Virus record (IMG/VR): IMGVR_UViG_2623620491_000014
Coordinates: 1 to 24,129 of that record
DNA: 24,129 nt
Reading direction: 5' to 3' (one strand)
Source: a virus
Lineage: Duplodnaviria > Heunggongvirae > Uroviricota > Caudoviricetes
The notes below the pieces were generated by a model, which searched no databases, was not told the DNA's origin, and saw nothing but the letters and a program-made list of their open reading frames with translations. The position numbers were made by a program, and so were the translations under genes. Shown in pieces: positions 5,324 to 9,405 of this stretch. Numbering within the stretch: position 1 is the stretch's first letter; each line of letters opens with the position of its first letter.

Positions 5324-5391
5324 GTTGGTTTTTCTCCACGGATTTACTGACAACCGAAGCCCTGACTGTTCCCGCAGTTGGGGCTTCAACT
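5315..5391 (+). ncRNA. sar: Putative sar-like antisense RNA, complementary to the ant translation-initiation region (boundaries approximate)
   Basis: In P22 a ~68-nt antisense RNA (sar) is transcribed across the arc-ant intergenic region, opposite to ant. Here that interval (5324-5391) is 68 bp and contains a composite stem-loop (gaagccc ... gggcttc, about 5356-5387). Placed by synteny only; promoter and exact ends not verified. Confidence 0.35.
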
Positions 5392-5643: not shown

Positions 5644-5895
5644 ATGGCTAGAGATGATCCGCACTTTAACTTCCGTATGCCTATGGAAGTAAGGGAGAAA
5701 TTAAAATTCAGGGCGGAGGCGAATGGGAGATCAATGAACTCCGAGTTGTTACAAATCGTCCAAGATGCTCTATCAAAACCATCGCCTGTGACTGGATATC
5801 GCGACGATGCAGAACGACTCGCTGATGAGCAGTCAGAGCTTGTTAAGAAGATGGTGTTTGATACGCTGAAGGATTTGTACAAAAAACCCACCTGA
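5644..5895 (+). CDS. mnt: Mnt repressor (maintenance of lysogeny; represses Pant)
   Basis: 83-aa ORF MARDDPHFNFRMPMEVREKLKFRAEANGRSMNSELLQIVQDALSKPSPVTGYRDDAERLADEQSELVKKMVFDTLKDLYKKPT, near-identical to P22 Mnt as I recall it. Divergent from arc-ant. Confidence 0.93.
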   Translation: MARDDPHFNFRMPMEVREKLKFRAEANGRSMNSELLQIVQDALSKPSPVTGYRDDAERLADEQSELVKKMVFDTLKDLYKKPT

Positions 5896-5904
5896 CGGTG
5901 GGTT
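5885..5904. terminator. Bidirectional rho-independent terminator shared by mnt (+) and the convergent cargo operon (-)
   Basis: aacccacc-tgac-ggtgggtt stem-loop flanked by A6 on the 5' side and TTTTATT on the 3' side, so it reads as hairpin plus U-run on both strands. The mnt stop codon lies in the loop. Confidence 0.65.
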
Positions 5905-5907
5905 TTA

Positions 5908-6327
5908 TTAGTGCTTGTATAGGTTGAACTCTCTATCAAGCCATATAACAAAAAATGTCGATCCAAGACGATAACCAACCATGGCTTTCAAATCATCAAA
6001 TCTAAAAGCCAAGAAATGATCTACGTCTTCCGTTATATGACTGGGGATACCTGCTTTAATTGCACCCCTTGCAATCTTCTCAAATCCAAGCTTATGCCTA
6101 CCTTGCTGCTTAATCTCTGCCCATGTTAGTTGACTTAATCTGTATAATTTATCAGCTAAGCCAGCTTTCTCATCTTTTTGGCATTTCGTTATGCAGTGAG
6201 AGCTTTGGATGTAACAGAATGAAAATTTCGGTTTCTTTTGATCTGAATTCCCCCCTGACTGCGGCCCTAACTTTAACTTACCTGTAGATTCAGCAGGGGG
6301 GATAATCCTTTTAGATTTTCTTGCCAT
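5908..6327 (-). CDS. Hypothetical 139-aa protein, candidate toxin/effector partner of the upstream DUF4065 gene (possible RelE/ParE-like C-terminal region)
   Basis: ATG at 6327 lies 4 nt after the upstream gene's TAA (TAA-CGAG-ATG), suggesting translational coupling. Basic N-terminus (MARKSKRIIPP...KKPKF), a C-x6-C-x3-C cysteine cluster, and a C-terminus ...KAMVGYRLGSTFFVIWLDREFNLYKH that resembles the GYRL/hydrophobic-strand/terminal aromatic-His pattern of RelE/ParE-fold toxins. The ORF-track start at 6402 is a TTG and overlaps the upstream gene; not believed. Confidence 0.6.
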   Translation of the reverse strand: MARKSKRIIPPAESTGKLKLGPQSGGNSDQKKPKFSFCYIQSSHCITKCQKDEKAGLADKLYRLSQLTWAEIKQQGRHKLGFEKIARGAIKAGIPSHITEDVDHFLAFRFDDLKAMVGYRLGSTFFVIWLDREFNLYKH

Positions 6328-6331
6328 CTCG

Positions 6332-6775
6332 TTAGTTAATCCGAGTTGCAAAGTACTCTGCCATCTCCTTAGAGCTAATTTCAGAACCACCAACACCCTC
6401 AATATAGTTTGATCTCCATGGTGACTCTTCGTGTGTCATGTTCCTCAGTTTCCAGGCAGAAAATTGCCCAAAAACATCCCAGACTTCTTCTAATAGCTCT
6501 AACTGTTCTTCGCTGAATTTTTCAGCATCAAAAGACTCTGGAGAAGGGATAGCGCCATTACCATATTGTTTATAACGGCGATAAAGCTCAGGGACAACAG
6601 GGCCATGCATCCAAGCTTCCATCTTATTCTGAAAAAGAGGCTCGCCAAGCAACGCCAATGAAAAACCCTGAGCATAGTAAACAAGCTTTTGTAATTTTAA
6701 ATTAGAGATTGTGTCACCGCTATCCTCGTCACACCGCGACAGGAAGTAGTCGGCGACATCAAAACAAGTAAGCAT
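6332..6775 (-). CDS. DUF4065 / Panacea-domain protein (SocA/GepA-like; candidate antitoxin or abortive-infection component)
   Basis: Protein MLTCFDVADYFL...ISNLKLQKLVYYAQGFSLALLGEPLF...EAWMHGPVVPELYRRYKQYG... carries the hallmark DUF4065 motifs (KLQKL.YYAQG, W..GPV.PE.Y). ATG at 6775 has a GGAGG Shine-Dalgarno 7 nt upstream; the ORF track's GTG at 6781 is less likely. Confidence 0.75.
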   Translation of the reverse strand: MLTCFDVADYFLSRCDEDSGDTISNLKLQKLVYYAQGFSLALLGEPLFQNKMEAWMHGPVVPELYRRYKQYGNGAIPSPESFDAEKFSEEQLELLEEVWDVFGQFSAWKLRNMTHEESPWRSNYIEGVGGSEISSKEMAEYFATRIN

Positions 6776-7149
6776 GAACACACCTCCATCTTGATAGCCA
6801 CAGCTAAGTATCCAACTATGTCAAATGTCATTTAATACTATAACAAAGCTATCAGCAATCCTTCGGAGGCTAACTTACAACCACTTTAGCGACATGTTTA
6901 AACCATTACGTTTCACATTTACTGCATTTTCGCCGAAGTTACCTATAAGGTAATGTCACATTTCCTGCAAGTTTCATGCAATGTTGAAAAGTGAGCTATT
7001 CACTTTTCTATGACACCAAACACCAAAAATAGCACTTTTTGCTAAATCATTCGTCCAAGTTGTGGATGGTTTGTCGTTGACACGTTTTCACACACCACTC
7101 CACCAATAAAGTATCATCTGGTATCCTGCTCAAAACTAAGGAGGTTGGC

Positions 7150-7539
7150 GTGAAGCAATTTCTTACTGCTATGTTCTTATTCATATCTTTTGGGGCTACA
7201 GCAGAGTGCTGGGTCGTTGGAGATATGCGCGGAATAAGCTATTCAGAACGAAATAATTTCCATCCGGAAGAAGATGGTTTTAGTGGAACATTCATCATTA
7301 AGACAAGCGGTGAAGATGCCAGCATCACATATTCTGGGACAGATGCGGGCGGCATGGCTTACAAAGCATTGTCTAAAAACTCCATCATAGGAATCGGCGC
7401 GAATGGCGAAACTCAACGCGTTATCGACTCATGGGTAATACATCCTACTGGAACAGTTTTAATGTCAAAAACCATTTCCGGTTATGGAAATATGGATTCA
7501 ACCAAAGCTTTTGTTGGAAAAGTAAAAAGAAAATGTTAG
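7150..7539 (+). CDS. Small secreted protein (moron) with N-terminal signal peptide; function unknown
   Basis: 129-aa ORF starting at GTG 7150 with a strong AAGGAGG Shine-Dalgarno 5 nt upstream. N-terminus MKQFLTAMFLFISFGATA-ECW looks like a Sec signal peptide; C-terminal Cys. Opposite orientation to the flanking late genes and preceded by a 368-bp AT-rich non-coding region. Confidence 0.7.
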   Translation: MKQFLTAMFLFISFGATAECWVVGDMRGISYSERNNFHPEEDGFSGTFIIKTSGEDASITYSGTDAGGMAYKALSKNSIIGIGANGETQRVIDSWVIHPTGTVLMSKTISGYGNMDSTKAFVGKVKRKC

Positions 7540-7563: not shown

Positions 7564-9405
7564 TTACTGCTGTGTTGCCTCAGTAGCAAACAGCGGTCTG
7601 ATGGCATTCGCAGCGTTATTTATCGCTCTTTCATAGGCTGGTGTTCCTGCTTTGGTGTTTGCCAAACGAAGAAGCATATTCCTTGCTGCTTTGGACTCAT
7701 ACAAGCGCATCATTGCACCAAAACCAGCCTCAAGCCCCATTGATACGCCAAGAGTCGCAGTTGCGCCAATCGTCCTTATCCTGTTGGCTTGCGATTGCCC
7801 CGTCTGAGTTACTACATTTGCGGTGTCTGACCTTGCTGTTTGCTGTAGAACTTCATGAAGAGCATCAAGCTCTTTCATGTGCTTTCCAGAAAAAATAGTG
7901 TTGTAAATTTCACCGCCTGACTGAGATTTCAGCTTATTAACTTCCGTGATGAACTTGGCTGGAGAGTCACCGGCCTTTTCCGCTATTTTGCTGACGTAAG
8001 CTGCACGCATAGCATCTTTCCCCTTATCATCCAATGCGCTCCAGATTCGTTTCACGTCAGATGGTTTTCTGCTTAATACAACGGTATTTATAAGTTCAGG
8101 GCTGGATTCACTACTTGCCTTATTGAGCTTGTTAGCAATGTTTTTATTAAGCACCTTATTATAAACGTTTGCATAATCGGAATTTGCTTTAAGGTATTTT
8201 GCTGCGTCTGAAGCACCGAGGTTTTTAGCAACTGCGTTACGAAGGTCTTTTGACATTGCATTCTCTACCATATTGGTAGCTGCTTTTGCCTGGTTGGGGA
8301 AGACCATAGCATCTCCCTGAACATTAGATCTAAATGCCGTTCTGTGCTGACGCAGGAGATCAAACGTAACATCCAAATCAGTTGCAGGGTTTGCTAATTC
8401 TTCACGTAGGTTACGCAAGGATGTAAGCAGGCTTTGATTGGCAGACGTCCCAAGCCGTTCCTGTCTTGCGATCGCTGTATTCAGAGCATTCATGGTATTT
8501 GTGGTATCAACTGCGGCATTACCCATTTTATTGGTGACGTCATTGATAACAGCGCCAGCGGCATCCTTCCGTCCCCTTAACGTGGTGGTCAGAGATTTCA
8601 CCACATCATCAGGGTTGTACTCACCAAAACGGTCAAAATAATTACTTACCAGCTTACTACGCGTTGCATATTGCTCCGCTCGCTTTGAGCCTGTCCCGAG
8701 CAAAGCCCCCTCGGCATCCTGAGTAAGGCCGCGAGTGAAAGCATTTTTCGGCGTGATTACATCAGATGTCATTGGTGTCACGCCCATCGATTCTGATGTG
8801 GCAATTTTTTTCGCCACTTCTGGCGAAATATCGCCTTTTATAGCCGTCATTCCACGCCCTATTCCCTTTGCTGCTGCGGAAAGAACACCCTGAGCGGCAA
8901 GGTTGACTCCGGCATTTTTAGCTGCATTTTGTGCGAAATCGCCTTTCTGATTTGCGGCCTCTGCCAGTGATCCAATAGCCATGCTTCCTGCCGTTCCAAC
9001 TCCTGGAACTAAATACCCACCAATTGTTTCACCGGCTTGCGCGTAGGGGTCTGTCGGTCTGTCTACTGGACGATAAACATCATCCAAAACCTTGGGTCCA
9101 CCAAGCCCCTGACTGATTGCATTAATCAGACTTGCGCCGCCCTGCAATACGTCAAATGGTATGTTCACCAGACCACGACCAGCCTGTTCTGCAATTTGCC
9201 CTGCACTTTGACCACCAGTGAGCCAATCGCCAGCTTGTTGCATCAATGATGGTTCTTCCCGTGTTGGTGCATTATTGGCCTGATTAACTGTTTGTTGCTG
9301 AACAGCCTGACCAGCAAAATACTCATCAATGGCGATGCCAATATCTTCGGTGCTCGTACCATCAGGAAAGGTAAATGTCTTACCGTTTGCAGTTACTTTC
9401 ATCAT
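7564..9405 (-). CDS. Ejection (internal virion) protein, P22 gp16 homolog
   Basis: 613-aa ORF at the gp16 position and size (P22 gp16 about 609 aa), Ala/Gly/Gln-rich. Start overlaps the upstream gene's stop (ATGA). Confidence 0.85.

Follow-up and report, generated by a model that had tools for sequence, protein, structure and literature searches.

The stretch of DNA analysed here, 24,129 nucleotides of IMG/VR virus record IMGVR_UViG_2623620491_000014 (hereafter the window), is a P22-like (Lederbergvirus) prophage in reverse reading direction. Between its gene 16-type gene and its immI (mnt–arc–ant) region it carries a two-gene operon, panA–panT (panAT), which is almost certainly a PanA–PanT module of the published T1 cluster and which forms a coupled, self-terminated and exchangeable piece of cargo in this interval. 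The reading that we favour, and consider reasonably probable overall, is that this T1 module contains a latent RNase that is silenced by PanA, giving abortive infection or addiction. For the toxic RNase mechanism of PanT taken by itself the chances are roughly even.

The upstream gene, panA (positions 6332–6775 including the stop codon, minus strand; ATG at 6775, TAA at 6334–6332), encodes a protein of 147 residues, the predicted antitoxin or sensor of the pair. It is preceded, 7 nt 5′ of the ATG, by a Shine–Dalgarno sequence, GGAGG (6783–6787, minus strand), that is kept in a second allele of the cassette described below. A first-pass annotation made from the sequence alone had called this protein a DUF4065 (Panacea) protein from the motifs KLQKLVYYAQG and WMHGPVVPELY. 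Both motifs are present, and a profile search confirms the assignment, with residues 28–120 matching positions 1–112 of the 113-position Pfam model PF13274 (SocA_Panacea) at 87.3 bits (E = 1.8e-24) against a gathering cut-off of 25.7 bits. PanA also matches phrog_1281 (E = 6e-60), and it scores 71.4 bits with the NCBIfam SocA equivalog NF047745, below the cut-off of 190. It is a stand-alone Panacea protein and not a SocA orthologue.

The downstream gene, panT (5908–6327 including the stop codon, minus strand; ATG at 6327, stop at 5910–5908), encodes a predicted RNase effector of 139 residues with a basic N terminus and the C terminus GYRLGSTFFVIWLDREFNLYKH. Its length, basic N terminus and start 4 nt past the panA stop, all as first annotated, can be read directly from the DNA. 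PanT falls into no Pfam family and belongs to phrog_8366, whose function is unknown. An initial search recovered 182 relatives, all of about 135–145 residues and none with a Pfam domain, and a full hidden Markov model (HMM) scan placed 1,524 representatives (clusters at 50% identity) in the family at E ≤ 1e-3; the top 150 of these all consist of a single domain and finish at the conserved C terminus. Both panA and panT are real genes. Across 40 PanT relatives the residues R109 (40/40), H78, R120, Y137 and the C-terminal H139 (39/40 each) are almost invariant, and E83, D131, W69 and W129 are likewise kept in 39–40 of the 40. The C-x6-C-x3-C cluster that had been singled out as a feature of the protein is not a family trait: C38 is present in 4, C45 in 36 and C49 in 28 of the 40 relatives, and a zinc site was considered and rejected, with only C45 conserved.

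Public records give PanT as 139, 147, 160 or 161 residues (P0001, P0003 and P0128 among them), the longer versions starting at upstream TTG codons within panA (window 5908–6402, minus strand). We favour the 139-residue start because it is the consensus Met of the family and the current RefSeq call, and because homologues in other alleles have in-frame stop codons just 5′ of that Met.

The two genes are separated by a 4-nt spacer, CGAG (6328–6331, minus strand), a gap repeated in the RefSeq annotation of an identical copy, which implies that their translation is coupled. The operon ends at a bidirectional intrinsic terminator (5883–5906, both strands) that it shares with the convergent gene mnt (5644–5895, plus strand), whose stop codon the hairpin overlaps. 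The hairpin has a 10-bp stem, a GUCA loop and U-runs on both strands, and folds with free energies of −15.8 and −18.1 kcal/mol (z-scores −4.2 and −4.6), with none of 200 shuffled sequences as stable on either strand. The equivalent hairpin of phage Emek is annotated as a rho-independent terminator; a simple terminator scan missed the hairpin in the window, since its stem takes up some of the T-run. Coordinates, spacing, motifs and the terminator facing mnt thus all proved correct on re-reading and RNA folding. The description of a tightly coupled two-gene operon likewise stands, with its 4-nt gap, common strand, own terminator and a pairing that is conserved well outside this phage.

Pairs of this kind are already catalogued. 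Panacea antitoxins (PanA) and their toxins (PanT) were defined by Kurata et al. (2022, PNAS; PMC8832971) from panA genes that have a partner no more than 100 nt away in an architecture of two or three genes, and the operon in the window, with its 4-nt gap, common strand and own terminator, conforms to this definition. T1 accounts for at least 217 of the 1,268 predicted PanAT pairs (PMC8832971). Two rows of their Dataset S1 are of direct concern here: Salmonella phage vB_SemP_Emek (YP_006560565.1/YP_006560566.1; T1, order A|T, overlap −62) and E. coli MOD1_EC5558 (WP_089622957.1/WP_077635758.1; T1, overlap −20), both entered as not toxic and both predicted in Table S1 to be ‘mRNase’ and, again, ‘not toxic’ (PMC8832971). 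PanA of the window is identical to the Emek protein at 145 of 147 positions and to WP_089622957.1 at 146 of 147, whereas PanT matches the core of the Emek protein at 138 of 139 positions and is identical throughout (139/139) to RefSeq WP_024173453.1, which adjoins WP_089622957.1 in the chromosome of another E. coli strain. To judge from these identities, the MOD1 pair appears to be the window’s own allele. The two published pairs are essentially the module of the window, sharing its slot, its terminator and its order of antitoxin gene before toxin gene, and differ from it in the length of the toxin open reading frame (ORF), 161 and 147 residues as published against 139 by family consensus and RefSeq. 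The initial view of the partner as an unrecognised, uncharacterised effector therefore does not survive, since the pair is catalogued as PanAT T1 with an ‘mRNase’ prediction (PMC8832971). Our literature searches found no later characterisation of the T1 PanT family, and the panAT pair is not known to cause abortive infection or exclusion.

panA and panT are almost never found apart. In a sample of 88 loci, given as four loci of distant relatives plus 80 viral contigs, PanA lies directly 5′ of PanT on the same strand in 85, and the identities of PanA and PanT to their counterparts in the window co-vary (r = 0.93, n = 42). Each of the four distant relatives has a Panacea gene of 142–146 residues immediately 5′ of panT, in four unrelated contexts: beside a type I restriction gene in a cyanobacterium, in a Solidesulfovibrio prophage, in a cassette array of Vibrio cholerae and beside an integrase in a fourth genome. 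The pairing holds across Cyanobacteria, Solidesulfovibrio, Vibrio and Pseudomonas-type phages. On the V. cholerae contig (L005, 2568–3420) the PanA–PanT(T1) pair sits among small genes typical of a superintegron, encoding DUF645, an acetyltransferase and a glyoxalase. The three exceptions among the 88 look decayed. One keeps only a C-terminal remnant of PanA, and in two viral contigs (L049 and L055, around 2470–2800) panA has been lost and PanT is truncated at its N terminus, in one case with an R109C substitution at the otherwise invariant Arg. Such decay of PanT where PanA is missing would be expected if the toxin cannot persist intact alone, a pattern represented by two related loci only.

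The operon travels as part of a mosaic cassette (5878–7159) with recurrent recombination breakpoints among P22-like phages and prophages. In about 30 loci the blastn breakpoints cluster at 5878–5881, within the terminator, and at 7152–7159, where the divergent gene has its start codon. Of 5,426 complete E. coli genomes, 48 hold an intact copy of the window’s panAT allele at 99% identity or more, and phages Emek and phiv205-1 have the allele too. The equivalent slot is taken by a second allele in phages EC.P3 and E212 and in viral contigs (L032–L048; equivalent to window 5983–6393), where DNA similarity is lost exactly across panT and the last ~20 codons of panA. The C-terminal tail (residues 126–147) is the most variable part of PanA, and these sequence comparisons suggest that it co-varies with the cognate toxin.

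Upstream of panA, the 374-bp intergenic region (6776–7149), presumed to hold the promoters of panAT (minus strand) and of the divergent plus-strand gene, moves with the cassette, and in its distal part (6860–7149) the cassette alleles agree at 97–100%, against only ~58% identity of their PanT proteins. The stretch 6860–7159 may have a shared regulatory role or may act as a linker for recombination. It contains a direct repeat, TCACATTT(A/C)CTGCA, in two copies 43 nt apart (6913–6926 and 6956–6969), which could be an operator or could have arisen by chance. Folding of the conserved intergenic region gave no significant sign of a structured RNA (z-scores −1.0 and −1.6), and Rfam found nothing inside the cassette. 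Neighbouring prophages exchange the plus-strand gene exactly at its start codon and retain the AAGGAGG ribosome-binding site.

PanT is a small protein whose core is modelled with a RelE/BECR fold. A confident AlphaFold2 model built on 40 relatives (predicted local distance difference test, pLDDT, 88.4; predicted template modelling score, pTM, 0.75) has a disordered basic N-terminal segment of ~30 residues followed by the order beta-alpha-alpha-beta-beta-beta-beta, and its core, two helices packed on an antiparallel beta-sheet, is of the RelE/ParE (BECR) type. The model supports what had been guessed from the C terminus of the protein. At the level of sequence the comparisons were negative: Pfam models returned nothing relevant for PanT and its 40 relatives, phmmer and profile searches against Protein Data Bank sequences found no solved structure related to PanT, and hhalign alignments with verified RelE and YafQ of E. 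coli stayed below 1% probability and covered no more than a ‘GYR’ tripeptide, which we treat as a coincidence. Nor did PanT have a significant counterpart in the BFVD viral fold library. PanT differs from the RelE, YoeB, YafQ and HigB mRNA endonucleases in its extra ~30-residue basic disordered N terminus and an insertion of ~17 residues (87–103), in having a Panacea partner in place of RelB, YefM, DinJ or HigA, and in lacking detectable membership of their sequence families, its RNase role being predicted only.

A link to a defence effector comes from other profiles. All 40 PanT relatives match the C-terminal ~100 positions (178–279 of 284) of the PADLOC model for NsnC of the Menshen system (best E = 1.7e-10), and 38 of the 40 match the NCBIfam MAG6450 family. 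In sequence PanT is thus a relative of the domain at the C-terminal end of the PADLOC NsnC model. For archetypal NsnC the C-terminal domain is named PB-BECR1, a predicted RNase of BECR fold with an H-R-H triad and YafQ as its closest structure (PMC12065111). The profile homology of PanT is to the PADLOC model, and the PB-BECR1 label is taken from archetypal NsnC (PMC12065111); with PB-BECR1, PanT shares the prediction of a BECR RNase and a conserved His, Arg and His. The two differ in architecture. Whereas PB-BECR1 is fused to an inactive-PIN (inPIN) domain and acts with NsnA (ParB-DUF262) and NsnB (an ATPase), PanT is a free-standing protein of 139 residues that lacks the inPIN region and has PanA as its partner, and neither NsnA nor NsnB is encoded near panT, where the neighbours are panA, mnt and a 129-residue ORF. 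A toxin with an mRNA-interferase fold, AarT of Acinetobacter guerrae (NetFlax node D3), is associated with an AAA-ATPase, has no HHpred match and inhibits translation (PMC10440598). Given the NsnC link it may belong to the same family as PanT.

Put together, these observations suggest how the module might work. PanT would be a latent RNase that blocks translation, with H78, R109, R120, Y137 and the C-terminal H139 as candidate active-site residues on the evidence of their conservation. PanA would keep it inactive through direct binding, by analogy with other stand-alone Panacea antitoxins, which neutralise their toxins in this way (PMC10440598). Were PanA lost or displaced, as could happen when another phage infects or the prophage itself is lost, the RNase would be set free, and abortive infection or prophage addiction would result.

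Several points weigh against this reading. The Emek and MOD1 toxins, which are essentially PanT, were not toxic when induced with arabinose in E. coli BW25113 (PMC8832971). The PanA of Clostridium cadaveris did not neutralise its T1 partner, which is toxic in E. coli (overlap −1), and neutralisation was scored n/a for the Emek and MOD1 pairs (PMC8832971). No classical RelE, YoeB, YafQ, HigB or ParE sequence model matches PanT, so that RNase activity is inferred from the fold and the conserved residues only, and the candidate catalytic residues were mapped by conservation and not by structural superposition. PADLOC recognises no complete defence system here and gives no match besides NsnC. Lastly, no promoter that would drive expression in the lysogen was identified: there is no sigma-70 consensus 5′ of panA, and manual inspection yielded weak candidates only.

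The negative toxicity results themselves need a qualification. The published overlaps of −62 and −20 nt correspond exactly to the annotations of 161 and 147 residues, which begin at upstream TTG codons in panA, so that the proteins assayed were longer by 22 and 8 residues at their N termini. The authors point out that a protein without toxicity in E. coli could still be toxic in the host it comes from (PMC8832971), an argument that is weak for the allele in the window because E. coli is its natural host. An effector that needs a cue would also look non-toxic. From the published non-toxicity it follows that, if PanT is an effector, it is either conditionally active or was assayed in a compromised form. 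The proposal of a toxin–antitoxin (TA) or abortive-infection module accordingly holds in one respect, the pair being a conserved, TA-like PanAT pair, but is set back in another by the reported absence of toxicity when the downstream protein is expressed alone, which the first-pass annotation had itself listed among the outcomes counting against it, a result that was obtained with extended constructs and stands beside the toxic T1 member of C. cadaveris.

A more specific form of the proposal draws on the Menshen link and is put forward tentatively, as possible but short of probable. T1 PanT would here be a trigger-dependent BECR RNase, a free-standing Menshen-type effector, providing abortive-infection defence from the interval that holds sieA in P22, with PanA as the sensor; the ‘non-toxic’ scores would be an artefact of the extended constructs or of an absent cue.

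Alternatively, the pair may not be a TA system in Enterobacteria at all, PanT being a non-toxic RNA-binding or RNA-processing factor or a catalytically tuned-down relative, and PanA its partner or chaperone in phage or host regulation. We think this unlikely, though it is the alternative to be taken most seriously. Two independent ‘not toxic’ results for the window’s allele agree with it, as does the absence of a recognisable defence-system call. So does the orientation of panAT, which is that of the late operon. P22 late transcripts read through immI as far as gene 9, and with read-through of the P22 type panAT would therefore also be transcribed during lytic growth. However, the two assayed proteins had N termini lengthened by 8 and 22 non-native residues, one T1 member is toxic, the His/Arg/Tyr set of PanT is nearly invariant, the homologous domain is a predicted effector of Menshen, and PanT decays where PanA has been lost.

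It is improbable that the module works as a type VI system like SocA–SocB of Caulobacter, with PanA as a proteolytic adaptor that delivers PanT to ClpXP or Lon for constant degradation. PanA and SocA have the Panacea domain in common, PanA reaches a sub-threshold score with the SocA model (71 bits), and rapid degradation of PanT could also account for its apparent lack of toxicity. That score is nonetheless far under the equivalog cut-off of 190, and PanT, with its predicted RelE fold, is unrelated to SocB; moreover, SocA is a ClpXP adaptor, whereas the PanA proteins that have been studied bind their toxins directly.

Still less probable is a counter-defence role, in which PanA would serve mainly as a decoy antitoxin against Panacea-controlled toxins of the host and PanT would be an accessory or a remnant. 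Phages are known to carry antitoxin mimics, such as Dmd of T4 (cited in PMC8832971), and Panacea can reportedly be evolved to neutralise other toxins. Against this role, PanT is intact and at least 99% conserved in all 48 E. coli copies, and it is co-inherited with panA across phyla, non-phage contexts included. The least probable alternative is a ParE-like poison, with PanT inhibiting DNA gyrase instead of cleaving RNA. We retain, as the favoured reading, a PanA-silenced latent RNase.

The surroundings of panAT in the prophage run in the order gene 16-type gene (minus), 129-residue ORF (plus), panAT (minus), mnt (plus), arc (minus), sar RNA and ant (minus). The gene 16-type gene, at 7564–9405 (minus strand), encodes a DNA-transfer protein, and the sar antisense RNA of the immI region (5324–5391, plus strand), between arc and ant, is found by Rfam model RF00262 at full length with 95.6 bits. 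The first-pass annotation had placed panAT in the slot of sieA, which is apt for the variable interval between gene 16 and immI as a whole but not as a gene-for-gene replacement. The sieA gene of P22 abuts gene 16 from the opposite strand, convergent with it, and beyond sieA come its promoter, non-coding DNA, the terminator of mnt, orf59a and mnt itself; panAT is nearer to mnt than this, in the place of the non-coding DNA and orf59a. By position and orientation the counterpart of sieA is instead the 129-residue ORF (7150–7539, plus strand). Likeness to SieA is confined to the shared variable interval and its exclusion or lysogenic-conversion cargo, PanA and PanT being unrelated to SieA and members of other families.

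The 129-residue ORF belongs to phrog_2651, of unknown function, and shows no similarity to SieA on comparison with the P22 protein. The Emek record names its product, whose N terminus resembles a signal peptide, ‘Sf6 gp38-like’, and the product is a candidate exclusion or lysogenic-conversion protein of another kind. On the other side of panAT, E. coli EPSSH018 (L090, 1799–2598) carries between mnt and panT a gene for a ClpP-family protease (Pfam, E = 4e-12), co-oriented with mnt, together with an ORF of 61 residues, and in phage Emek this junction (near window position 5900) is taken up by three different small ORFs. The mnt–panT junction is a second cargo site.

The panAT operon is thus a known module, predicted earlier as a PanAT pair and still to be confirmed by experiment. 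The present analysis adds an explicit fold for PanT, the profile link of T1 to Menshen NsnC’s C-terminal domain and to MAG6450, the boundaries of the cassette and its second allele, and it brings out a start-codon problem in the published toxicity constructs that gives a reason for repeating the assays. Were PanT found to be active, the commonest family of Panacea partners (at least 217 of the 1,268 predicted PanAT pairs) would gain a function, the T1 family would be tied to an effector of Menshen defence, and an RNase-based exclusion system would be added to what P22-like prophages carry in E. coli and Salmonella.

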